A DNA stretch of 63,513 nt, the filler included, from Folioceros fuciformis (Eukaryota): the NCBI GenBank assembly GCA_049999805.1. It is 4 parts of 3 records of this genome, joined end to end, with 100 filler letters (N's around TTAATTAATTAA, not from the genome) between each part and the next. Parts side by side here need not be neighbours in the genome. Positions count along the whole stretch, not along the records: positions 23,668 to 53,842 come from JBNGIO010005636.1; 3 more parts are not named here. One strand, 5' to 3'. The notes beneath the pieces are model-generated. The model searched no databases. It saw nothing but the letters and a program-made list of their open reading frames with translations, and had not been told where the DNA came from. Of this stretch, positions 3,611 through 62,236 are shown piece after piece. Made by a program: the position numbers and the translations under genes. Each line of letters begins with the position of its first letter. Position 1 is the first letter of the stretch.

Positions 3611-6502
3611 TCATTTCCGCTGGTTCTTGGAGTTGAATCGCAGGACGACGTAGAAGCAGAGACGGTAGAGCAGGGCCCAGGCGAGGAGGATGAGCACGCA
3701 ATTCCAGCGGCTGAGGCTGCCGACGCCGAGCTGGTGGAGAAGGTGGTCGCCGGTGAGGGCGCAGGCGGGATCGGAAGCGGTAAGGCGCTCGCCATCCCAG
3801 CAGCGGGGGTTATGGCTGAACTGGTTGAGGAGGAGCGCCTCGTAGGGGTACTTGATGGTGGAGAGGTAGTGCACGGGGAGCCAGTAGGGCGGGATCTGGG
3901 AGCGCGGCAGGAAGTAGCCGCAGGTGAGGAAGAAGATGGCGGTGAAGGCGATGACGGCGGCGTAGCCCAGGATGAAGTTGGGCACGAGCGCGCTGATGAA
4001 CATGACGAAGCTGTTGGTGGCGAGCAGGGAGGCGTAGAGCACCAGCCAGAAGAAGGAGACGGAGCCGTCCAGGTTCAGCGCCCACCACGTGATGACGGTG
4101 TAGGTGAGCGCCTGCACGGCCAGGAAGGGCAGGTAGGTGATGACGCCGGCGATGGTGTAGGAGGAGGCGCGGTACGCGTTGTGCGAGCTCTCGCGGATGA
4201 AGATGAAGCGCTCCTGGATGAAGGTGGGCACGGCGTCGTTGGAGCTGAAGAAGAAGAGGCAGACGGTGAAGATGACGAAGGAGAGCAGCTGCGTCACGCC
4301 CTGGAGGGACACCGGGGTGCGCCGGAACAGGGTGGCCATCATCATCCCCATCACCGTCAGCACCGTCTGCCGGGACAGGAAGAGCTCCGGGGTGCGGTAG
4401 ATGTTGTAGTAGTTGCGCACCATGAGGACCATCACCTCGCGGGCGAAGGGGTTGGCGAACTTGTGTCCCTCTGCTTCCCAGCTCCCGGACTCCAGCATCA
4501 TCTCGTACGTCCCTGGCCCCTCCGTCTCGTAGTCGGAACTGCACGGGGTGGCCGCTGTGGGAGTCGGAGTCGGAGTCGCCGCCCGTATCTCCGAGACCGG
4601 CTGCCGCAGCTGCTGGCTCCCCCTGTGCGCCCGGGAAGCTCCCATCCGGAGCATCATCATCGGGGTCTGCATCTGCATGTGCACCGGCTGCCCGGGCGTC
4701 CGCCCTGGTGTCTTCCCCGGCGTCCTCCCCGGGGTGCGGAGGATGTAGAGCGGGGTGCGGAGCGGGAAGCCCCCCGCGTCCAGCGGTCGGTAGTAGCTGC
4801 TGGCCAGGACCTTGGGGACGGCGCCCCCCACCCACGGGCTACCCCGTGTGAGCGACCGGTCGTAGTCGTCTTCGTCGTCCGCTCCGGAGTCCGCCACGCT
4901 CCGGAGGGGGCTGTGGAGCCCTTCTGGTTCTGCTGCTGCTGCCTCCACCTCGGGGCTGCGCCGACCGTACGGGCTCTTCCTGCAGGGAGACTTCTTCGCC
5001 GACCATATGTTGCCCGGAGTGGTGGTGGCCTTGGGCTGGAGGGTCGTGGCGCTGGGCTTGATTCCGTCCTTGTTGAAGGCCACGAGCGGGTCCAGGCCCA
5101 CCGTGGAGCGGTCGTATTCCTGGATCACGTCCAGTAGGAACTCGATCGGGTTCTCCCCCTTGGGCACGTCGCGCCCCAGGGCTTGCATGTGGTTCTTGAG
5201 CTGCGACGGCGTGCCCTGGTAGATGAGCTTCCCTCTGCAACAGCGACGACAAGAACCCACCGCTCTCTGCCAGTGAGTGTTCCCACGCTAACACAACAAT
5301 CAACTTGCGCAGAGCCAGGAGAGGAGAGGATGGATTGTCTGTCACCTGGCCAGGACGATGAGGCGGTTGAGAAGCATTTGGATCTTGTACGAGGGCTGGT
5401 GGATGGTCATGACGATGGTGCTTCCGGCCATGGCGATGTCGTACACCTTCTCCACCACGCTGTAGGCGCTGGAGGAGTCGAGCCCGGACGTGGGCTCATC
5501 CAGGAAGAGCAGCGACGGGCCGTGGATGATGTCCACCCCGATGGACACTCTGCGTCTCTCGCCGCCGGAGATTCCTCGGTGGCCCTCGTTCCCGATGTAC
5601 GTGTTCTCCGCGCTCTGTCAATTTGCAAAGCGGGAGGGGAGGAGTCAGGTGGGAGGCGGAGGGTGCGGGTGAGGAAGAGCACATCCGCGCCACGTCCTTA
5701 TCCAGCGCTAGCACGGAACACAAACACAGTGGGGTTGCTTGCACTCACAGTGAGCCCGAGCTGCTCGATGAGCTGCGTCACTCGGCTCTTCTTCTCATCC
5801 CGGGACATGGTGTGCGGCAGCCGCACCTCGGCCGCGAACAGCAGCGTCTCGTACACAGTTAGCATGGGGAAGAGCTGGTCATCCTGCATGACGTAGGCGG
5901 AAATGCGCTTCATGAGGCTGGAGTTGACAGGCCGCCCCTCCACCGTGATGAGGCCCTCCAAGCTCCCGCTGGCTATTCTGCCGGCCAAGGCGTCCAGGAA
6001 GGTGGACTTCCCGGCGCCGCTTGGGCCCATCACGGCCGTCACCTGGCCCTTGGGGGCCTGCCCTGTGATGTTGCTCAGCAGGTTCATCTCCCTCGTCACC
6101 CATACGCCGTCCCGTTTCTGCTTCGCCAGCACGGTGTAGGTGAGATCCTCGAATTCCAGCCCCGTCCCCTTGAGCGCTGCGCTCCCAATTCCGCACCCAC
6201 TCTCCAACCCTGCCCGTCACAGGACACTGTGCGTCAGTCTTGTACACATCAAACCCAGCACTCCACTCTCCAATCCTTGGACAGAATCCGAATCCCGAAA
6301 CAAAAGGCAACGTAAGGAGAAACCCACCGCCAGAAGCCGGATGAGCGAGCTGGTCGTCGATGGTGAGCAGCGTCTCCAACGTCTGCAGCGCGTCGGCCTC
6401 AGGGTGGCCGTTGTGCTGCTGCACATGGGGATGCGGCGCCGTCGAAGTACGCCCCAGATGGCTCAGTCCCCTGCCTCGGCCCTGCGGCTCGTACGAATTC
6501 AT
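3611..6502 (-). CDS. STR: Half-size ABCG transporter STUNTED ARBUSCULE (STR); exons 6502-6328, 6209-5749, 5614-5346, 5234-3611
   Basis: Walker [10 protein letters not shown], signature [12 protein letters not shown], Walker [17 protein letters not shown]-type segments [59 protein letters not shown] and C-terminal RFNSKNQRK. All three GT-AG introns keep the frame. Confidence 0.9.
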
Positions 6503-7265
6503 GGCCGCGACGTTGTTTCTCCCAAGCCCCTGATCTCATTGATCGACAAGCACGAAGGCCAGTATTGGAAGCAGCTGCGCATCCGAGCCGTGAGTTATAT
6601 GGGCGTATCCCAGCCAGCAATTCCTATCGATCAATTTGGCAGCAAGCTCCCAAGGAGTGGCAAGTGCAGAGCACACGGAGAGCTGGCGGGATCCAGCCCT
6701 GCAGTAATCCACACAGGCGGCAAATTCCACAAAGCGGGTCCGGAGTCCGGGAGGTGGCGGGCTATCTGCATCTGTAGGGATGAGGGCAATAGCACACAAA
6801 CATGTCACACAGGCTGTCGACAGAATCCACAAAATGGGTCCGGAGGCAAAGTCGAGGCACGGGCGGCTTCCCCGGTCGCACATGACGCTCCCGGCCCCAC
6901 CTCGGGAGCGCCGCCCCTTGATTCTCCGATGTCCACCTCTGTATCCAAATTCCTTATGAAACATGTGGCTTCAGAGGTCGGTCGGGCTTCCTGGATTGGC
7001 GAGATGAAACAACTCAATTACTAGACTTTATCCACACACCCGTTGCACAGAATCCCTGTATCTTAAAGTGAATGGCATCCTGATGAGAAAATACGTTGTC
7101 CGGGAGACCTCCTTGATGATGGCCTCATAAATAGTTACAGTAATCTCAACACATAGACACGACCGAGGGGGGGGGGGCTGACCACCGGCCATAGCTTCTT
7201 ATCTCAACTAAGCTATCCTCACTCACCTACCTTGAGGTGTTTTGATGGTGATCTTGTGGGCATGG

Positions 7266-23567: not shown

Positions 23568-23667
23568 NNNNNNNNNNNNNNNNNNNNNNNNNNNNNNNNN
23601 NNNNNNNNNNNTTAATTAATTAANNNNNNNNNNNNNNNNNNNNNNNNNNNNNNNNNNNNNNNNNNNN
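23568..23667. other. Artificial contig linker
   Basis: 44 N + TTAATTAATTAA + 44 N. Confidence 0.97.
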
Positions 23668-45369: not shown

Positions 45370-47313
45370 TTAAGCTGCATCTGCTGCGACGGCAGAGGGG
45401 TTTGCTTCTCCACCCTCCACTGCATCCAACTTGGCGTTATCGAGCTCCACGGCAGCCACAGCAGCAGGTTCTTGCTTCAAGACGTTACCAACCTCCACGA
45501 TGCCAAGGTCATCTTCAGCCACCTCCACGATGCCCAGCTCCGGTTCTGTGATGCTCAGTTCCGGCTCGGAGATGCTCAGTCCCAGATCTGTCACCTCGAC
45601 GATGCCCAGCTCGGGCTCTACGATGCCATCGTTCTGTTTCTTTTCAACATCCTGAGTAGTGGTGTCAACACTTCCTTGTGGACCCTCCAGACCTTTACCA
45701 TACTTGGCTGGGCCCTTGCCGTTTCCCACCCTCTCAGGACACAGTGGTGGAAACTCCAAAACGGTACTGCTAATATCATCGGCGTCTGGCACCTCCAAAA
45801 TGCCAAGTTCCTCTCCTGCCACGCTGTCAATGTGACCATTGCCGTTTTCATCCTCCGCTGTATCTCCCCCATCCTCACTTCCACCAAAACCATTTACAGC
45901 TGTTCCGTTAACTGCATCCGAAACCCTAGTCTTCTGAAGGCCAGCATCTCCGAGAAGTGCCTTTTTCTCTCTGGCCTCCCTTGCCTCCACTTGGAGGGCC
46001 AAAAACTTATCCTTGGCCGCCTTCACGTCCTCTAGGCTCTTGGTAACATCTCCGATAGTCGAAGGAGGTGACAACTTAATTTTGGCAAACGAGGATAAGG
46101 CATCTACCGAGAGTGTGATCCTCTCCTTGTCCTTGTTCCTGAGAGGGGCTGGCGCTCTTGTCTTCTTCCCCTTCCCTTTGCCTCCTCCACAGCCTGCGAA
46201 CCATCCATCTAGGTCGCCATCGCTCTTCTTAGAGGACACCACCATCCCTTTAGGCGCAGCAAACTCAGCTTGAACGGCCGCCGACGTCACCTGACTCTCC
46301 CCTGCCGGAGTAACATACTTACACAAGTACGAAGAAAGCTGATCGCAGAGAATGAGCTCGTCTGTGAAGGGCTCCACAAAGTTTTCGAGCTCCTTCTGCT
46401 TCCTGAAGGCCTCCCTTTCCTTCCTTTCAGCCTCACGCTTTTCATAATTCCTCTTCCTGTCAGCGAACTGTTGGTCCTTGAACTCCCTCTCCCGCTGCCA
46501 GTACTCATCCTCTTTTAGCCTGTGCTCATGCCTGAGCACCCTTATTTCGTCCGCAAGGATTCTCGTTTTGTCGTAGGCACTCTTTTTCTCTTCGTGCAAG
46601 AGAGGAAGTTCAGAACCCTCGGCACTTTCCTTCTGCTTGATTTCCGTCATGACCTTCTTCTGAAGCTCCTGCTTCTCCTTCACGTCGTTCAGCAACTCGT
46701 TGATTGACTTCATCTTTTCGAGAAAGACTGATCTAGAGCCTTCGTCCTCCGCTATATGCTCCAGCAGCTCATTGTACTGGTTGATGGATTCCCTTGACTT
46801 AGTCAACTCCTTGATCTGCTGAATGACCTTCTTCTCTTCGGAGAGGGTCAAGGAGGTGTGAGACATCTTGTACTCCAGCCTCTTAACCTCCTCATCTACC
46901 TGGTCCAACTTCACAAACTGCAGCTTGTCCCGCATGGCTCTCGCTTCTCCCCTCATCTGCTCCCTCGCCTTGTCAGCCAAGTCCAATTCATCCCGAATAG
47001 CTTTCTTCTGCTCCACCAGAGTCCGGAACTCGGTGTTCAATTCGGTCTGGCGACTACGAGCTTCCCCAACCTTCTGGCTGATTGCATGCCTGTTCTCATG
47101 TTTGCTCTGCAAGGCTTTGTTGATCTCAGCAATCCTCCCTTGCAGCGCCACTATTGCCGCCTTCTTCTTCTCCACTTCCTGCTCCAGCGCCGCTTTGTCA
47201 GGACGTTCGAGCCTCTTCACTCGCCCCGTCCCGCTCTTCACCCCCTTCCCCACAGGCACCGAATCCGTCGCCTCCGCGGCCACTGCCACCGGCACTTCCC
47301 TTAGTCCCACCAT
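45370..47313 (-). CDS. Long coiled-coil protein, Bfr1 / proton-pump-interactor-like, intronless CDS
   Basis: 650-aa ORF; LEYKMSHTSLTLSEEKKVIQQIKELTKSR, PFTDELILCDQL, LSVDALSSFAKIKLSPPST; C-terminal ELGIVEV repeats. Confidence 0.7.
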   Translation of the reverse strand: MVGLREVPVAVAAEATDSVPVGKGVKSGTGRVKRLERPDKAALEQEVEKKKAAIVALQGRIAEINKALQSKHENRHAISQKVGEARSRQTELNTEFRTLVEQKKAIRDELDLADKAREQMRGEARAMRDKLQFVKLDQVDEEVKRLEYKMSHTSLTLSEEKKVIQQIKELTKSRESINQYNELLEHIAEDEGSRSVFLEKMKSINELLNDVKEKQELQKKVMTEIKQKESAEGSELPLLHEEKKSAYDKTRILADEIRVLRHEHRLKEDEYWQREREFKDQQFADRKRNYEKREAERKEREAFRKQKELENFVEPFTDELILCDQLSSYLCKYVTPAGESQVTSAAVQAEFAAPKGMVVSSKKSDGDLDGWFAGCGGGKGKGKKTRAPAPLRNKDKERITLSVDALSSFAKIKLSPPSTIGDVTKSLEDVKAAKDKFLALQVEAREAREKKALLGDAGLQKTRVSDAVNGTAVNGFGGSEDGGDTAEDENGNGHIDSVAGEELGILEVPDADDISSTVLEFPPLCPERVGNGKGPAKYGKGLEGPQGSVDTTTQDVEKKQNDGIVEPELGIVEVTDLGLSISEPELSITEPELGIVEVAEDDLGIVEVGNVLKQEPAAVAAVELDNAKLDAVEGGEANPSAVAADAA

Positions 47314-49602
47314 GTTGTCCACGGATGCTGTACCTCACACAATCTCAGATCTGACAATCCTGCACCTCCTGCTCCCAATCCCGCAGCTTCTCCTACCAGA
47401 AAACACAAGCTTGGAAGCTCCTGCAACCTGTAACATAACCTAGCGCCAGTGCATGCGAGTTGGAAAGATGCAAGTCCTCACGGAACGGAATTCCGCACCT
47501 CTGACTCCGATCTCCTTCGGCTGCTCCCCCCGCAGCTCAGAGAAGGCTCTGACAAGGGCTCCGGACCCCGGAGCTGCTTTTCGAGCCCTCGCAACCGATG
47601 GTGGCACAATCCACCGCACCAGGCCTCACTCTGAGCAGAGAGGAGCAGAGGGCGAGTGCATGGATGCGATGTGAAAGACCCCCAGCAGTTTCTAATTCTG
47701 TACCTACGGCTGACAAAACGTAAGATCTTTACAGTGACTATAGTAGAATTTAGAAACACAGCTCCCCTCCACTAACTTTTCACGATATTTAACTAACAAA
47801 GCCTATCACCCCAAGTCTCTCTCTTCTTCCCACGTCTCTATTTATTGAGACAAGGAAGCCAAGTTTCTCGGAAGAATAAGTCGCTTAGTTCAGTTAGGCT
47901 GGAGGTGCTAATTCCAGTAATGTTGGTACTTATATCTAACCGAACAACTAATGTATACATATATAGATGTATATAAGTTCTCAATTAAATTTCTTGTCTT
48001 TAATTATATTTTTTTATACACAATCATTCATACACTTACATGTAATCGAAATCAAGCTTACCATTTTCGAAATTATATCAAACCTAAGGCTATATATGTA
48101 AGGCCCTATAGACCAAACAACACCAAGTAAGTTAAGCTTTGCTAACGAGCTATTCCTCTCCTTCTTTAGTTGTTATATCACTCAAGTACTTCACGAATGA
48201 GGGATCCTTCTTTAGTTGTTATGTCACTCATTACTTGGACGATTGACTAGACTATAGTCATCTAACAAGTACTGGGCTGTAACTTAGACTAAGAGAAATA
48301 CCCTAGGCATGCTATAGGCATAAGATTCATACCATGTTATTATGGATTCAGTGAGTGGGTCATTCGAATTGCAAAAGCTTGTGCACATGATCTTATGTGT
48401 GATAGTGGCATAAAAGGTTCTTTCGTGCTTCACATGCATACTCATTGTTGAATTGCTCGCACATAATTGTTGAGGTTGTTTCTGCAGTCCAGTATAAAGC
48501 CTACTATTCCAATAAATAGCAAGACTACCTTCTTTGCATTGGTCTTATGTTATTAGTCTACATTAGAGATGGGTTCCTTCCATTGATATCTCAAACTTGA
48601 GGTATGAAGGGTGCAAAAGAAGGGTGCAAAAGAAGCCAACTGGTTTCACATGAGGACCACAAGCATAAGACCCTTGCATGAAAGGTAGTTAGAGAACACC
48701 ATCTATTGGGATAGTAGTACTATGCTTGACTGCAGGAAGTGCCTCATCATCTATGTGGGACGCAATTCAACAATATGTATCCTTGTGATGCAAGTAAGTG
48801 CCTTACATGGGATGGATTTCAAAAGTGTATATCCATCATGCAATGCAATGCAATGGAATCCACCACTAGTGTTAATGCAAAGTGTGGTTGGCTTAGGAGA
48901 TCGTGGCTCAAAACTGGCCAACCAACACAAGATTACATAGTGTCACTAACTCTAGTGGTTGGTAGAGCCTTACCATCATATTTTAGGTTCAGTCACTAGG
49001 GCTTCAAAAGTTAGTCTCTAGTGTCCCTACCATGATTTATTTCCTTGTTAGGGTAGATAGGTTTTCGGGTTTTCCATCTTTTTCTTCTATAATAAATATC
49101 TTTTTTTTCCTCAACCTTGAAAGTTGGGCGGCTAAGGGTCCTGCGTAATGGACCAAGACCTACAAATATACCTCCATCCAAGCACAAAAGAAGCAAGGTA
49201 TGCTAGAGAAGAGATTGAACCTACAGAAATATTAGTATCAACGTTACCCACCTCAAACCCGACACTAGAGGGCCTACTGGTTGCTAAGCCTAAATATTTG
49301 TTCGCCAAGATATGGGCTCGCGAACCGACATGCCATGCCATGAGCATGGCCTTCCTCTCCCCTACTCCTCTCTCTCTTATCTGTGCCAACCCGCGACCAA
49401 GCTACCAGGAGCAACAGGAAACTAATTCAAGTTCCCGTCACCCTGATTGTCATGCCAATTCTCGCGGAGATACTACTCGCCCTTCGTTCGTTTCAGTTGA
49501 GAACGAGAGCGGAGAGAGCGCTCCGCTCAAAGCATGGCACACAGTAAGAGTTGAAAGACCGAAGGCTGGGGAGGATGCACGTATATTGATCGTGCTCCAG
49601 CG

Positions 49603-52157
49603 ATGGATGAGGATGCAGTGCATTGTCCTTTTGCAGTTCAAAGGCCTGGTGGAAGGAAATTTTCTTTCAATGACTTGGTATGGCAACAATCCTCATACAA
49701 GCATCCATCTTGTCTTGGCCAAGACAAACAACGACAGCTAGCTTACATCCCTTGGACCAGAGTGCAGGATTTCATAGAGGGCATGAACTCATTGCCACAT
49801 GCCCCTACAAATTATTACAAGGCATCTCGTAGAGGGCCGGCCAGCAATACTTCAGTAGTAAGTTGTCTAAAGCTAGATGCAGCCATTGTTACAACAGGGT
49901 ATGTATGGACCCTAAGGATTCAATTCGTTTACTTTCTACTGGTTGGTATCATTGAAAGATTTCATCTTCAGTGTTTTGCTTCCAGTTATTGGTGTGGATA
50001 TGGGCCACAGGACCTGCAGAGTGTTCCCATGCCTCCACCACCTGTACTTATTATTGTGGAGGGTGAGAAGAAGAAGCGGTCTCGGATTGCTAACGGTGAA
50101 AGCATCAAACACGGTTGTCAAGCTTCGTTTGCCATTGCACAGTTATGAAGATGGCCAGTAATTGCTCAAATAACATTATACGAAACTATGCATGTGGATG
50201 TTTCTGGAAGAGTCTGTTATGGCCCAGAGTACGTAGACATGCCAAGAGATGTCAGGGCTCCTCACTTAGCCCCTCACTTGAGTGCTGATAAGAAGGCATG
50301 GGTAAAACATGGTTTACTATGTAATGTTTCTGTGTTAGAGATTCTTAGACGACACCAAGAGCAAGTGCGGGCGAAATGTTATGGGCTTTCAACAAGCTTG
50401 GAGCATGAGTCACAGTATGTGCTGATTAGAGATGATTTCTTGACACGTGCAAACATTGACAATCTTGCTGTCGACTTGCTAGGTATAGTGTGAAAATATC
50501 ATCAGGATGACAATATTAGTGTGGGTATATGGACGCGGCTCAATGCTGCATTTGTGTTTCACAAGTCCACTGCTGATCAGTCGTTTTGTTTGGGGATTCA
50601 GACCCCGTTCATGCTTTAGACCTGTTTTACACATGGTAGGAATAATGTGCTCGGGATTGACTCCACGTTTGGTGTAAACCAGTACAAGTACTAGCTCTTC
50701 ACAATTATGGCTTTCGACCTTCACATCAATGGTATTCCAATAGCGTGGGTTTTGGCAAAGGACGATACAAGTGACACCATAGCCAGGTGGTTGACTTCTT
50801 TTCATGAGGTTTTGTTAAGTAAGGATGCAACTTGGTTGCCCTCCGCAATATTGGTTGATGATTGTGCAGCTAAGATTGCTGCAATTTGAAAGGTTTACAA
50901 TTACAATTACGTTCTACTTTGCCTCTGGCATGTGCGTTGTGCTTGGCTCCGTAATCTTATTAAAAAAGTCCAAAACAGGGTAGATAAGAAAGCCATATGG
51001 CAGAAATTAGGTGATTTGATGGACATCAAGGGCTCCAGCACATCAATTCGAGATACAATTCGGGAGAGTGAGCAGTTGCTATTTTCCTTTTATGCTAAGT
51101 GGGAGAAACGACAACCCGTGTTTGTGGGCTATTTCAGAACAACATGGGGTGCACAACTAGGTTAGTCCATATCTTCACCCTCGTATTCTCCCTTTTCAAG
51201 CTTGTGCACATACACATCTTCACAAGGCCTGTTTTGATTGTAGACATGTTCATAAAAAATGCCCGCATGCTTCTGCATGCAGGGCAAGATTGTGCCTCTG
51301 CTATAGAGGCATGGCATCAATTTTTTAAGCAGAAACTTAATCTTACGAGGGCATCTCTTGCTGGTAGATGAGTAGACTAGCTTTTACATCAATTGTGCTT
51401 CGTAATTGCGTCCCATTATTGGTATGTGAACCATTGCAAAGAAGAAGGGTATGTGGTTAACACAACCGAGGAGAAACTGGTGCACACTGCAATAGATTGG
51501 GCAACTCTGATTGAGGATGATAATGTTACTTTGCCTTCCCTACCTTGTACCATAGCTTTATGTAGGAGTTCAACAGATGCCCATGTGACATATACAATTG
51601 AGAATGCAGATTCCATGTGGGCTACATGTGAGTGTGTTCAAGGGAGGAAAGGCTTTATTTGTAAACACATCATGGAAGTGCAGGATATGCTTGGAGTGCT
51701 CTCATACACACTCCAGATGAAACGTCAGTATATAGCAACAAATGGTCTGGTAATTCAGGAGCCTATAACAACTCTTGCTTTATGTGATAATAGAAAACAG
51801 TTGATGGAAAGCATTTCGTGCAACCTGCAACCCGCTGTGGAGGGTGTTTTATGTAACGAAAGCGGAACATAAGATTAGATTCACTTCCTGGAACAAGGTT
51901 GTAATGCTATTGTGAATTTGATGCACAAGAATAAGGAAGTCATGGGGGATGCAGCACTTTTGGTGACATGTACACTCATGGTTGTCCAGCGCTTGATTGC
52001 ATATGAGCAGGAAATGCCTGCAACACGGCAGCCTCTTCAAGCATTCACCACCAACGAGGGAGACAACAACATCGTTAGGACTAAGCCATTCTTCTCACTA
52101 AGAAAGAAAAAGAAGAAGAGAGTGACTTGGAAGTTATTAGCAAACAAAGAAAACTAG
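49603..52157 (+). pseudogene. MULE DDE plus SWIM zinc-finger transposase with premature stops; introns at 49899-49985 and 51161-51243
   Basis: GIDSTFGVNQYKY, GIPIAWVL, ILVDD, LLCLWHVRCAW, SAIEAWH, SWIM ATCECVQGRKGFICKH; in-frame stops at about 50146, 50491, 50887 and 51369. Confidence 0.85.
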
Positions 52158-52212
52158 CGTAAGTATAGGTGCGATGTAGGTGCCGGTAATGTCTCCCTTC
52201 ACATGTTTTGAC

Positions 52213-52291
52213 AATGCTGCAATTAATCAAAAACTCAATCTTGACCAATGCTAAAATTAATCAAAAACTCAGTCTTGACCAATGCTGCAAT
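52213..52291. repeat. 34-bp tandem repeat, about 2.3 copies, inside the MULE
   Basis: AATGCT..AATTAATCAAAAACTCA.TCTTGACC twice plus a partial copy. Confidence 0.85.
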
Positions 52292-52849
52292 AAGAGTGAT
52301 CGTCCTCTCCGCTCGTCTTGATCATCCTCCTCCGCGCTTGCCTCATAGCGTTGCGCATGCCTGAACGTTGTGCGTGCCGACGAGTTCGACTTTATATCGT
52401 GCCAGAGTATTGCCGCGGTATTGAATCAGTTCCCCTCGCCCCCGGTGGCCCAGTCGCGGGTTGGCACGCATACCAGAGAGAGGGGCAGGGGAGAGGAAGG
52501 CCATGCTCATGGCATGGCATGTCGGTTCGCCAGGTCGTACCCTGTCGAACGATCTTTAGGCCTAGCCCCTGCTGGTGGCACAAGCACACTGGATAATGAA
52601 ATGGCCAAGATAATTCATCCAAGACGAGAACGAAGGATCACTGAGCGAAAGACGAGCTCTTACGACATCGCGGTGACGTACATCGGGTGGTGGCACGTTC
52701 CACAGTCGCATTTGAAAATAATATAAATTAACTTAAAATAGAAACAGACGATATAAGACAGACGGTAAGGTTGTATGGTTCTCCGCTTCTACATTGCTCG
52801 GAGCCCCAAGGTTGTACAAATTGAACTACATTCCAAACATCAAGGCACC

Positions 52850-53842
52850 TCGGGGACAGACGCTGGGGCGTGGCGACGGGAAGGGGATTTGCTTCACCCA
52901 CCTTCACGGCGTCCGGCGATGAATTATCAGCCTCATCGCTGCAGCTTCCTCTCCACTACGGCAAGGCCACCTCCAGTTTTGTGTACTCGCCTTGCTGTAC
53001 ATTCTTTCGAAGGCCGTAGTGGTGGAAACTCCAAAATAAGCCTGCTAACAACATCAGTGTCTAGTAGTACCTGCAAGATGCCAAGTCCCATTTGTATCCA
53101 GGTGAATTCATACATTGTCGCCATTCTCGTCGTCACCCTCGGCAGCATTCCTTTCAGCCTCACTTCCAAGAACAACTTTCTCAGACTGAGCCTTGACTGC
53201 ATCCAACACCCTCGCCTTCGAAAGGCTGGAGCATCTCCCTGCTCTACTGGTTTTGTCTCCGCCCTGCGTTGCCTCCGCTTTGAGAGCCAGAAACTTTGCC
53301 TTCGCTTCCTTCACGTCCTCTACACTCTTGAAAACTTCCCCAACAGTGGAAGGAGGCGCCAAGCTGAGTTTGGCAAACAAGGACAATGTGTATTTCGACA
53401 GAGTGATTCTCTCCTTGTCCTTATTCCTAAGAGGGGCGGGAGCTCGTATCTTCTTCTTCTTTCCTTTGCCTCCAGCAGAGCCTGCGAACCATCCATCTAG
53501 GTCGCCATCACCCTTCTTGCACAGCACCATCCCTTCAGGTGCAAAACCCTCAGGTTGGAAACGTGTCCACGTTGAGGAACTCTCTCCTGACAGGGATGCA
53601 ATATAGTTCTGAAGGGATGAGGAAAGTTGATCACACAGCACAAGCTCGTTTGTGGAAGGCTGCACAATATTTTCCGATTCCTCCTCCTCCCTGACGACTG
53701 GAACTAAATGTACAGGGGCCACCTTGGGGACAACCTCTGAGACAGCCACTTCGGAGACAAGCTCCGCGACAACTACCTGGGGGATACACTCTGCGACAGC
53801 TACCTCGGGGACACACTGTGCAACAGCTACCTCGGGGACACA
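52850..53842 (-). pseudogene. Partial paralog of the 45370-47313 gene (C-terminal half) with a different repetitive N-terminus; frameshifted tail
   Basis: DGDLDGWFAGS.GGKGK..RAPAPLRNKDKERITLS is nearly identical to the upstream gene; LGILQV..ILEFPPL lies in another frame after a stop at 53108; 5' end cut by the linker. Confidence 0.75.
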
Positions 53843-53942
53843 NNNNNNNNNNNNNNNNNNNNNNNNNNNNNNNNNNNNNNNNNNNNTTAATTAATTAANN
53901 NNNNNNNNNNNNNNNNNNNNNNNNNNNNNNNNNNNNNNNNNN
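53843..53942. other. Artificial contig linker
   Basis: 44 N + TTAATTAATTAA + 44 N. Confidence 0.97.
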
Positions 53943-55300: not shown

Positions 55301-55695
55301 TGGGTTGCGGTGGTCCTTGCGCCGCAAACCACCGCAACGATTTGCGCGTGTGGTGAGCGCGTGTGGTGAGCGCGTGTGGTGAGCTGTCAGCGGTGTGCGG
55401 TGGTGTGCGCGACGGTTTTTCCCGACGGTTTGTGGCGTGCGGTGAGCTGTCTGAAGGATCACTAAAAGGAGCTACACGGTGAAAGAGGAGAGGAGGAGAA
55501 AGGATAGGTCACACTCTCACACAGAGTCTTAATAGCAAGGGAACTCAAGGGGGTATTTATATCCTCTAGAAGAGCTCCCTAGGAAGCTTCATAAGAAGCG
55601 CACAGGACGCTGCACGATAGTGGGATAGTGGGATAAGTGTGGCCACTATAGGACGAAGCTCAGGGAGCGCCACTCCCCAAGATCCGCCCGCCACA
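55301..55695 (-). mobile_element. LTR (TG...CA, 395 bp)
   Basis: The minus strand starts TGTGGCGG and ends AACCCA; TATAAATA near 55555-55562; internal 13-bp tandem repeats; it separates copia pol from host sequence. Confidence 0.6.
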
Positions 55696-58600
55696 CTTTT
55701 GTCCATATCCCCTGCATAATCAGCATCCGTATATCCCACGACAAATGCATCTTCACTACCAAAACATAAGCACAAAGCTTTCGTACCATTCAAGTACCTC
55801 ATAACTCCTTTCACTACCTCCCAATGCTTCCTGCCAGGGTTTGACATAAACCTGCTAACCACTCCCACTGCAAAAGCAATGTCAAGACGTGTAGCAATCA
55901 TTGCATACATCAAACTCCCTACAGCTGATGAATATGGAGCCTTCTCCATTTCAGCTTGGTCCTCCGCAGAACTTAGGCAATCCTTGCTCGACAATTTCAC
56001 ATATGGAGGCAACAGAGTACTCAATACCTTCCCCTTTTCCATATTGAAACGTTGAAGCACCTTGTTAATGTACTCAGTCTAAGACAAGTAAAGCAAACGC
56101 TTCTATCTGTCTCGATGAATACGCATACCAAGAATATGGCTTCCCTCTCCCAAGTTTGTCATGTCAAAGCGAGCATTCAACTTTGACTTCAATGTTGAAA
56201 TCTCATCATTGTTAGTCCCAGCAATCAACATATCATCGACATAGAGGACCAGAATGAGCAAGCTTCCATCCTTAGCTTGCTTCGTATAGAGGCAATGATC
56301 CTCATCGCTACGCTTGTAGCCTTGAAAAAGCATAAATGAGTGGAACTTGAAATACCACTCCCTGGGTGCCTGCTTCAAACCATAAAGGCTCTTCTTTAAC
56401 CTGCACACCAGACTCTCTTTGCCCTTCTCAATGAAACCCTCTGGTTGCTGCATGTATACCTCTTCCTGGAGATCACCATCTCCCACTTGTCCTTGTCAGT
56501 CACTAACATGGCCTCTTGATAACAAGAGGGCTCCCCACAATCCGTCAACATGACATAATCAAGAGATGCAACATACCTGTCAAGAGGACGTGAGATCCTT
56601 CTTGACCTACGAAGCTTTGGCGCCTCGACCAGAGCTGGTTGCACTCTCTCCTCTTCTAGAAGTGGAGGAACTTGTTCCTGCACATCACGACGTTCAACCT
56701 CCGCGGGACGGTCAAGTCCATCTTCTTGGAAGACCACCCGACGCACTTCCACAATTGGAATAGGCTTCTTGTGCATCTTGGTCTCATTGAAGAACACGTC
56801 ATTGCTACGAACCATCCTCTTGGCCTCTGGATCCCACAGATGGTATCCCATCTCACCAGATTCACCATAGCCAAGAAAAATACATTTTCTTGACTTAGGA
56901 GCCAACTTGTCCCGAAACTCCTTCGGAACATGGTAGTATGCCTCGCAGCCAAACACTCGTAGATGCTTGTAGGACGGCTTCTTTCCAGACCACATCTCAT
57001 CTAGAACCTGTTCATCCACAGCCCTATTAGGAGATCTGTTAATAAGATGCACTGCAGTAACCACCGCTTCGGCCCAAAATCCGTTAGGCAATCCAGAGTT
57101 GGACAACAAACTACGCATCCTCTCTTGGATGGTCCTGTTCATCCGTTCAGCCACACCATTCTAGGGAGGAGTATACGGCACAATCAATTCTCTCTTGATT
57201 CCCTTGGAATCATAGAATGACTGGAAAGCCTTCGAAACATACTCTCCCCCATTGTCTGTCCTTAGACACTTCAATCGGAGGCCAGATTGATTCTCCACAA
57301 GGGTAACGAATTTCTGAAACACTGTCAGAACATCATCCTTTTTCCTCAAAGGATAAACCCATACCTTGCGTGAGAAATCATCCATGAAAGTGACAAAATA
57401 GGATGCACCGCCTAACGATACAGTGGGCATAGGTGAACAAACGTCACTGTGAACCAACTCAAGAGGTTTACTTTTGTGTTTACCTCTTGCTCCATGTGGT
57501 GACTTTGTCTGTTTCCCATACAAACAGTGCTCACACACAGAGAAATCGGAGAAGTCAAAAGCAGGGACGTAACCAGAACGAGATAGTATCTTCATTCCTT
57601 TTTGAGACATATGCCCTAACCGACTATGCCACAAGGAAACACTTGGCTGTTCCGTTACACAAATCACATGATCCTTGACAGTGGTTACCTGAAGTGAGTA
57701 CAAAGTGCCACACTTCGATCCACGAGCTAACACAAGAGAACCTTTGGAGATCTTCCAAGAACGATCTCCAAACCAACAATGGTAGCCAGCGTCATCCAAC
57801 TGCCCTGAGCTAATCATGCTTTTGATCAACTTCGGAACATGCCTAACATCCTTCAGTATGAATGAAGATCCATTGTCAAACTTCAGCTGCATATCACCAA
57901 CGCTTGCAATCTCGCATGCGTAGTTATTTCCAAGCCGAACACATCCTTTCCTAGTAGCATCATAAGTGCTAAACCACTCCCTATGAGGAGTAACATGGAA
58001 AGATGCTCCAGAGTCAATTATCCAATCAGAGAATAAGTGACTCTCCACGGCTGTCAGTTGTGTAGAATCGAAGAAAGAAGAGGTAAGAACATCTCGATCA
58101 TCAATAGAGTTCACCTCGTCATGCTTCACACTCAGACTTTCCTTGTTGTCGCTCTACTTCTACTCCTTGCCTTTGTCCTTCTTGAACTTCTCGCAGTCCC
58201 TTCTGATGTGATCCTTCTTGTGACAATGGTAACACTCAACATTGTTACAACTACGAGACTCACTACGGGAACGGCTTCGCTCCTTGTACTTCCCCTTTGA
58301 AGTGGACCTTCCTCTCACCATGAGGGCATTGAAACCTTTCGAGGGTTCCATATTCTTCCTGTTCACCTCCTCTGTTAACAGGCTACCTTCTACATTTACA
58401 ACGATAAGACCACTGGCAGTGGTGGTACTCAGAGCTGTACGAAAGGTGTCCCAGCTCTCTGGTAATGCTCTCACGGAATTTGGGAACGAGATACCTTAAG
58501 ATGAGAGCTGGCTGAAAATGGTATTGAACTCATTCAGGTGATCGGACATCCTCATCCCTTCCTTTATCTTCAAGTCCACCAACTGTTTCAACTAGTACAC

Positions 58601-60119: not shown

Positions 60120-62136
60120 TTGATGAGCGACGACGAGACCTATACAGTGCCAGAGTGGCTAAGGAATCTCGCTCAAGAGGTTGGACTTGCGGATTTCGAT
60201 GATGATTCGCAAGGAGATGAGGATGTTCCTTCAGATCAAGCCTCTGTAAACACAAATTTGTCAAACGAGTATTACTCTTGGTTTCGAAGGCCAAATATGG
60301 GTGATGAAGAGAAAGATCGGGTGAGGTACTCAACACATTGCAATCTCTTACCAGTGGTGGTTTTAAAGAAAAAGACCGACTGGTCACAGGATCAGAGTAT
60401 GATGTCTGGGTTATGAGAATGCGAGTGCTTGAAGTGAAAAATTTATGGAGGCTGGTTAGTGGCGATTTACCCAAACCAGCAGATGATTCTACCGACCTTC
60501 CCTTTTGGCAGCTGGCAGATATAAGGGCACGAAACCTGATAAGGTCAGGTCTTGGTCCAGAGATGATGCGCCAGGCATCTGATGGTCCAAGTGATTCAGC
60601 ACAAGATATTTGGAATCACCTTGCTATGATGTTTGCCTCCCACGATATGGCGGCGTCCATGTCTGCGTCAATAAAATACCACAGTTTGAGAATGACAGAA
60701 GGGGAGACGGTTGAACATTATATAGCAAGATTCAGAATTGCTCGTGCGAGAGTAAGCTCAACAGGGACCAAGATTTTTGATTATGACGTAGCTTGTAGAC
60801 TGCTGAGTTCCTTACCCCCTAGTTACGGTCCCTTTGTTACTGGTCAACAGGCCATGGCGAAGGTGGAGGCCAGAATAGCCAAAGCCTTGAAGCTTGATGC
60901 AGATCCTCTAACTTTCAATGGAGTTGTTATTGCGATGCTGCAGGAAGAAGCCACGCGGCTGTCTTCACGCTTTGCCAAACAGCAAACACAAGGTCAGCAA
61001 GCCCTTTTTGCAGGCAGAGGCAAACCATTCAAGCGAGGCCGAGGTAGCAGGAGTTCGAACCGTGGTGGTAGGACAATTGCTAGTGGACCTGGTCAGAGTT
61101 CAGGCAGCCAGAAAAGGAGTGGCAATTGTAATTGGTGTGGTATACCAGGCCACTGGGCAAGGGATTGTCGAAAGAAAAAGGCCGGCGAGCCTAAAAAGGA
61201 AGGTGCTGGATCTCCTGAGGCACATACTGTGCAGGCACCAAAGAAGAAGCAGGCACCAGTGATTCTGACTGTGTGTCTTACCACTGCTGGTTCACATACA
61301 TCAGCATGGTTTATTGACTCAGGTGCCTCCGCCCATATCTGTCATAACAGGGCATCGTTTATTGAGTATAAGCCATACATGGAAGCACAATCTGTGCTGT
61401 TAGGAGATGAACGCACACTACCCATTGTTGGAGTAGGCAGGGTACTCTTACTACTATATCATGGAGGGAGCCTCGAATTAAAGGAAGTTCTTCATGTACC
61501 TGCATTAACCAAGAACTTACTGTCAGTGCGGCAGCTTATTGCTGACAGAGCACTGCAGGTGTTTGTTCGAGGAGACAAGTGCACCATAGTGAGGAGCATG
61601 GATCCAGGTGCAACAATTGCTGAGGCATTTCCAGTCAACGATATTTACCAATTAAGTATTCCCGGTAGTACTTTACCTACCCTGAATATTGCTGGACTTG
61701 GAGGCCGAGTTGCTTTGTAGGAGGCGGCTACTGTTTGGCACTTGCGGTGTGGTCATCCTCACGGAAAGAAGTTGCAGGCCATGGTTAACAGTACCTTGTA
61801 CTCTGATGGCATTCCAGGTCAAGTGGGGGATTTGCCACTATGTGAAGCATGTGTCTATGCTAAGCACCATGAATTTGCTTTTGACAAGTCAGGAGCTCAC
61901 CGTGCTGCTGCTCCGTTGGACCTGGTGCACTCGGATATATGTGGTCCCATTTCCGTCCCAAGCATTGGTGGAGGGTCCTACTTCATGACGTTCATCGATG
62001 ACTCTACTCGATACTGCATGCTGTATATCCTGAAGCATAAAAGTGAAGCCTTAGAGACATTCAAAGAGTATTTGCTCATGGTTGAACGTCAGCATGGCAG
62101 GTCGTTGAAATGCCTGCGATCCGACAATGGTGGGGA

Positions 62137-62236
62137 NNNNNNNNNNNNNNNNNNNNNNNNNNNNNNNNNNNNNNNNNNNNTTAATTAATTAANNNNNNNN
62201 NNNNNNNNNNNNNNNNNNNNNNNNNNNNNNNNNNNN
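62137..62236. other. Artificial contig linker
   Basis: 44 N + TTAATTAATTAA + 44 N. Confidence 0.97.

Follow-up and report, generated by a model that had tools for sequence, protein, structure and literature searches.

Domestication of Mutator-like elements (MULEs) is already well known as a process. In the MUSTANG and FRS/FAR1 families, the whole transposase was tamed together with its DNA-binding domain, catalytic core and SWIM finger, and exaptations of this type are all placed within angiosperm evolution in the accessible part of PMC4948706. Among mobile relatives, Muta1 of Aedes aegypti has been dissected by mutation: the changes D214A, D283A and E419A abolish transposition, H307A in the CxxH motif cuts it by 99.5%, and insertions carry target-site duplications (TSDs) of 8 to 9 bp (PMC5225508, in the part accessible). 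Here, we analysed a stretch of 63,513 nucleotides from Folioceros fuciformis (assembly GCA_049999805.1; the whole stretch is called the window), in which positions 49282-52567 were confirmed as a copy of a Mutator-superfamily DNA transposon. The element resembles Muta1 and ISCth4 in its long terminal inverted repeats (TIRs), 9-bp TSD, D-D-E and CxxH residues, RNase H core and SWIM finger (accessible parts of PMC5225508 and PMC6446971), but it has neither of the DNA-binding domains PF03108 and PF03101, its N-terminal domain is longer, and the copy is dead. Very probably, it is a decayed, once autonomous cut-and-paste MULE of the land-plant lineage that lies behind a family of seed-plant SWIM zinc finger genes (the host genes), and a cousin of their ancestor.

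Structure, copies and decay of the element

The limits of the element and the parts of its transposase gene are as follows.

49273-49281, no strand: left TSD, 9 bp, CCTACTGGT, 8/9 identical to the right TSD
49282-49430, plus strand: left TIR, 148 nt, 81% identical to the right TIR; 27 matches in the same genome
49603-49898, plus strand: exon 1, with the inferred start codon and the first half of the N-terminal beta-rich DNA-binding domain (FSFNDLVW and AYIPW..DF blocks)
49899-49985, plus strand: intron A, GT-AG, phase 2, directly 5' of Y-W-C; predicted from alignment, splice signals compared in six sister copies
49986-51160, plus strand: exon 2, with Zn-ligand C/C/H, helix-turn-helix (HTH), RNase H-like core and five premature stops
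50659, 50857 and 50920-50931, plus strand: the exon 2 catalytic residues D, D and CLWH
51161-51243, plus strand: intron D, GT-AG, phase 1; predicted from alignment
51244-52157, plus strand: exon 3, with catalytic E (51306), SWIM finger (51627-51668), basic KKKKKR tract (52104-52121) and four premature stops
52421-52567, minus strand: right TIR, pairing with the left TIR; 29 matches in the same genome
52568-52576, no strand: right TSD, 9 bp, CCTGCTGGT, 8/9 identical to the left TSD

The TIRs pair between 49283-49430 and 52421-52566, which agrees with the repeats of about 150 bp described in an earlier sequence-only reading of this DNA; the true termini are 49282 and 52567. That reading had also proposed an 8-bp TSD, and this was rejected, since 9 bp fits best across copies: over eight two-ended copies, the 9-bp register matched at 72% compared to 12 to 31% at 6 to 8 and 10 to 12 bp, and none of 56 mismatched flank pairs used as a control scored above 6/9. 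To the left of the element (48409-48809) lie nested imperfect inverted repeats with arms of 48 and 40 nt, possibly a miniature inverted-repeat transposable element.

The transposase gene has three exons (49603-52157, plus strand) in a frame of 794 codons, and two GT-AG introns were indeed found, as had been claimed. Exon 2 matched the Pfam family PF10551 (MULE) above the cut-off (E = 2.2e-11) and PF21056 (ZSWIM1/3 RNase H-like) with E = 3.2e-8. The D, D, CLWH and E residues as well as the C-x-C...C-x-H residues of the SWIM finger are all present in the window copy; the Pfam SWIM profile gave no score on exon 3, though these ligands align. Neither the MuDR domain PF03108 nor the FAR1 domain PF03101 was found in a Pfam scan of the window exons, and the longer N-terminal domain has no Pfam family match. 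The catalytic set and SWIM finger noted earlier are there, but the reading frame is not intact, being broken by nine premature stops, and the His of the zinc-finger motif VCHG is replaced by Tyr. A 34-bp tandem duplication lies inside the element, 3' of the stop codon (52212-52279).

The TIR was found at 17 places in the 87-Mb assembly, eight of them with both ends. Six of the eight two-ended copies have 9-bp TSDs (9, 9, 8, 8, 7 and 7 of 9 positions identical), all different, so that the family is multicopy with distinct insertion sites and agrees with the TSDs of 8 to 11 bp, typically 9 bp and of no fixed sequence, that characterise the superfamily; copies L029 and L031 have no TSD (2/9 each). 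One copy, L036, is an 825-bp deleted derivative inserted in the left end of a sister element, and the empty site carries the 9-mer once in uninterrupted sister copies (five of the six examined), which proves the 9-bp duplication. Seven near-full copies differ pairwise by 7.9 to 9.6%, with two to three times more transitions than transversions, and the window copy differs from its sisters by about 9%. Differences within the family are spread evenly over the codon positions, which, together with the similar pairwise distances, argues for one burst followed by neutral decay. In its behaviour, the window copy is an ordinary dead transposon.

Related families in the same genome have kept other features. 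Families L077 and L078 are bounded by different TIRs of their own and by perfect 9-bp TSDs. The locus L074 (G000:C5629, 1318-6615) has an unbroken spliced transposase open reading frame (ORF) of 790 amino acids, a first intron of 1.4 kb with 158-bp tandem repeats and, at its right end, no properly oriented TIR but a fold-back palindrome (6048-6615); it could be an immobilised yet still coding copy. A single sequencing run examined for expression gave no contig on L074, which argues neither for nor against its transcription. L075 is nearly identical to L074 and has a copia-like insertion. Between the window copy and L074, differences at the three codon positions were 0.43, 0.33 and 0.64, and this excess at the third position between families points to selection on the protein while the elements were mobile. 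The wider lineage gave at least 150 protein matches in this genome (150 of 175 candidates scored), and 61 of 61 PF10551 matches in the assembly fall on loci of this one lineage; MuDR- and FAR1-type DNA-binding profiles had no match in the assembly, in a scan that had no positive control.

By analogy with Muta1 and ISCth4, we infer cut-and-paste transposition by this transposase. A structural model of the related fern protein P0170 (pLDDT 78.8) had ISCth4 (IS256) as its best match (Z 15.4; root-mean-square deviation 4.7; 263 residues aligned; Foldseek E = 4e-6), followed by Hermes and RAG1, and the N-terminal part of a model of P0140, a second relative, gave weak matches to AFT2 and WRKY18. The HTH behind this part resembles in the P0140 model that of mariner transposases, which is a lead; a sequence search of the PDB had no match. 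In the mechanism we propose, the N-terminal WRKY-GCM1-like zinc domain and the HTH would bind the TIRs, and the DDE core would excise the element and reinsert it with a 9-bp stagger; after a single burst, the copies of the family would have decayed chiefly through C-to-T changes.

Kinship with the seed-plant SWIM genes

A search of 1.84 billion representative sequences with the intact exon of L074 had fern, liverwort, conifer and angiosperm proteins as its top ten, the host genes among them with E = 1e-52. Only three longer homologues were found, the host proteins of Tasmannia, Ginkgo and Mercurialis (28 to 31% identity over 98 to 99% of the query). A profile search yielded 182 proteins; nearly all of the 120 listed are seed-plant proteins named "SWIM zinc finger", and by motif these 120 sort into 98 of type A, 6 of type B and 15 of type C (the type of Ginkgo Gb_37568), with 1 unsorted. 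One type A protein (P0254) is named "like AT1G60560", and we take type B to be the At4g13970 type. On two metagenome contigs, type A stands beside DHNS/F-box genes and type B beside HSF/F-box genes, presumably the neighbourhoods of At1g60560 and At4g13970, respectively. The likeness to the At4g13970/At1g60560 family that the sequence-only reading had noted is real, but the family is not limited to angiosperms and two types: it extends to Ginkgo and comprises three types.

Host proteins can be aligned with the window protein over about 630 amino acids, exon 1 included (26 to 29% identity, 209 to 278 bits), and the window protein aligns with a fern protein at 33% and 333 bits, above any host tested. 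For four of four host proteins, exon 1 scored 56 to 93 versus maxima of 41 to 45 in 500 shuffles each, in line with the colinearity of N-terminal blocks claimed before; this likeness was absent in two distant relatives tested. Element and host genes thus have the N-terminal ligands, the SWIM finger, colinearity and membership of one land-plant clade in common. They differ in that the element is multicopy and TIR bounded with a broken ORF, whereas the host genes, described as low copy, have no TIR pair at the five loci scanned, short branches, two more introns and, for the most part, a changed CxxH His (types A and B) or first Asp (angiosperm type C). Unnamed proteins that are annotated as hypothetical in Adiantum, Riccia, Calypogeia, Cryptomeria, Taxus, Mesostigma and Ostreococcus belong to the same lineage, and most of them keep D-D-CxxH-E. 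The Ostreococcus-like relative P0138 has an Ulp1 protease domain (PF02902) between its N-terminal domain and the catalytic core.

Intron positions give independent support for the kinship. Seven host loci covering all three types were examined out of 80 fetched, and each has four introns. Host intron 1 is in phase 2 directly 5' of Y-W-C at 7/7 loci, the site of intron A, and host intron 4 is in phase 1, five codons 3' of the Trp in W-x-P-x-I, at 6/7 loci, the site of intron D. The window element and L074 have exactly introns A and D, so that both match the host genes in position and phase.

Trees were calculated from 69 rows (quick) and, after removal of 28 near-duplicate, gappy or long-branch rows, from 41 rows with a mixture model (careful); the groups were the same in both. 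A single land-plant clade (100/98) holds both the element and the host genes; further liverwort rows and algal rows branch outside it. Host types A, B and C are monophyletic (100/99), Ginkgo sequences falling within A as well as C, and they are joined (99/97) by Taxus and Cryptomeria sequences and a protein of Amborella. The elements of the Folioceros genome make up a clade of their own (99/98), close to rows from ferns and liverworts (87/88). The branching roughly follows plant phylogeny, as vertical descent would predict. In the Taxus cluster, there are 18 members at 90% identity on several chromosomes, and the Cryptomeria cluster has three plant members, which suggests mobility there. By these trees, the element is a cousin, not a sister, of the domesticated ancestor, the conifer sequences being nearer to the host genes.

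The sequence-only reading had regarded the element as a relic of the mobile lineage from which the host family was domesticated. This holds at the level of the lineage but not as direct ancestry. Full-length colinearity and the two common introns would also fit a direct sister or survivor of the transposon tamed into the At1g60560/At4g13970 family, but the hosts group with Taxus, Cryptomeria and Amborella and the Folioceros elements stand apart, a fern protein is nearer to the window protein than the hosts are, and forcing element and hosts into one clade cost 55.6 log units and was rejected (p-AU = 8.7e-6), which makes so close a tie hardly credible. The common introns fit the opposite direction equally well, in which TIRs came to enclose an old SWIM gene of the host (as in a Pack-MULE) or such a gene was mobilised again, and some liverwort and conifer relatives do look catalytically dead. 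Such an origin is nevertheless very improbable: the D-D-CxxH-E set is complete in the elements but not in the hosts, several families have TIRs and TSDs of their own, the host genes lie in the tree within transposase-like rows that have algal relatives outside them, and no host-type orthologue above 40% identity was found in the assembly, which may be incomplete (81 of 81 candidates scored; 58 of 252 in an earlier round).

It might also be argued that the element is an ordinary MuDR/FAR1-type transposon and its likeness to the host genes generic, since DDE, CxxH and SWIM are common to all MULEs and the ordinary clades are absent from the tree. We consider this very improbable in view of the rank of the host genes in the search of representatives, a likeness that extends over exon 1, and the two exact intron matches. 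Moreover, PF03108 or PF03101 exceeded the cut-off in 0 of 55 long relatives, with one weak FAR1 match. No other MULE was seen in the window or in the flanks of 80 metagenome loci, and the MULE clusters obtained from the ESM Atlas were all unnamed ones of streptophytes, arthropods and fungi. Of the two findings that would have refuted the sequence-only reading, neither was made: the TIR is multicopy with distinct TSDs, and the full-length sequences nearest to the protein belong to this lineage and to the seed-plant SWIM hosts, the distance from MuDR and FAR1 being judged by search rank and missing Pfam domains.

Several points weigh against a decayed MULE that is cousin to the ancestor of the host genes. 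The element has no counterpart of host introns 2 and 3, the fourth junction of host locus L174 was not recovered at the shared site, and intron A, though present in most subfamilies of this genome, is absent in four deeper ones; introns A and D and their junctions are themselves predictions from alignment. The tree was built without ordinary MuDR, FAR1 or MUG proteins, its outgroup consists of unnamed, long-branched rows, and the multicopy state in conifers, ferns and liverworts is known from cluster lists alone. Likeness to WRKY-GCM1 domains is weak (AFT2, Z 5.8; WRKY18, E = 0.035), and D-D-E is kept in host types A and B, so that some nuclease activity is possible there.

Signs and probable date of domestication

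In the 120 listed host proteins, the five N-terminal C/H ligands (C/C/H/C/H) are invariant (120/120); the catalytic E does not vary either, nor do any of the four ligands of the SWIM finger. In contrast to the element, most host proteins have a catalytic lesion: Arg replaces the CxxH His in all 6 proteins of type B and in 92 of the 98 of type A, and His replaces the first catalytic Asp in 13 of the 15 of type C. No credible TIR pair was found around the host gene at the five host loci scanned. This pattern fits a loss of transposition with DNA binding kept, and we think it rather probable that the host genes act as DNA-binding regulators. Since the transposase protein and the two introns tie the element to them, the seed-plant SWIM genes look like very old tamed transposons. 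Their domestication probably took place before the gymnosperm-angiosperm split, earlier than that of MUSTANG or FRS, because Ginkgo has two of the three types (A and C). In the accessible part of PMC4948706, MUGA was not found outside angiosperms and the split of the gymnosperms is put at 290 to 310 million years ago; host types A and C, in contrast, reach Ginkgo. MUSTANG and FRS/FAR1 derive from another transposase lineage. In the sequence of events we propose, a land-plant MULE lineage distinct from MuDR/FAR1 would have persisted in many copies in seedless plants and conifers; one seed-plant member would have been immobilised before the gymnosperm-angiosperm split and duplicated into three gene types, keeping the DNA-binding domain and losing catalytic residues.

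Other relatives may have been tamed separately. The full-length proteins P0005 and P0037 (Riccia), P0019 (Cryptomeria), P0012 (Amborella) and P0006 lie outside types A, B and C and have broken catalytic motifs, and they are candidates for independent domestications. Four unnamed proteins of 265 to 445 amino acids (P0140, P0105, P0072 and P0109) consist only of the N-terminal domain and HTH of this lineage and are possible stand-alone DNA-binding derivatives or truncated predictions. In its widest form, the proposal is that an undescribed green-plant MULE lineage, the only MULE detected in the assembly, gave rise to an unreported seed-plant gene family of three types with complementary catalytic lesions (the CxxH His in A and B, the first Asp in angiosperm C), whose age would be about 300 million years or more and would exceed that of MUSTANG/FRS, and that liverworts, conifers and Amborella each saw a further, independent taming of the lineage, the intact L074 offering a before-and-after comparison. 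As a whole, we see this as evenly poised between right and wrong.

Literature and other features of the window

The MULE lineage of the element is apparently undescribed. No paper stating a link between it and At1g60560/At4g13970 was found, though Data S1 of 10.64898/2026.08.24.746577 may list the genes; each of the two gene ids turned up in a single paper, on an unrelated subject. An exapted-transposon screen, in which 50 of 67 genes were tested (PMC5715367), has neither id in its main text or 10 text supplements, some pages of which are pictures. The words moss, fern and Selaginella are absent from the accessible part of the MULE survey PMC6446971, and the accessible parts of PMC1702500, PMC2528002, PMC12973397, PMC8599713 and PMC13110187 do not mention this family. 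Judged from the accessible parts of two sources, 309 MuDR-derived genes are reported to have arisen in 38 domestications (10.64898/2026.08.24.746577) and SAME1 of Brassica is described as specific to Brassicaceae (PMC13110187). Against this background, the locus gives proof at the level of TIRs and TSDs that two conserved but unstudied Arabidopsis genes have a family of mobile transposases behind them, and the taming can be given a probable date before the seed-plant split. It also offers a hypothesis for orphan genes across seed plants, which would be DNA-binding regulators with TIRs as the candidate class of binding site, and an intact mobile relative allows side-by-side assays of the way from transposase to host factor.

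The element neighbours an APC8 gene, which is 81% identical to that of Calypogeia, 79% to Selaginella, 78% to Sphagnum, 75% to Adiantum and 68% to Ginkgo, in keeping with a seedless land plant. A coiled-coil gene lies on the minus strand at 45370-47334, with a partial second copy at 53018-53694 (minus strand, 71% identity over 683 nt), 450 bp to the right of the element. At 23568-23667, 53843-53942 and 62137-62236, a TTAATTAA-containing spacer stands between 44 N's on either side; these are scaffold linkers and not biological palindromes. Fragments of copia-like retrotransposon gag/pol were recognised by eye at 55566-58153 (minus strand) and 60308-61720 (plus strand). A GC-rich gene for a half-size ABCG transporter occupies 3611-6216 on the minus strand, and we take it to resemble the symbiosis genes STR/STR2.

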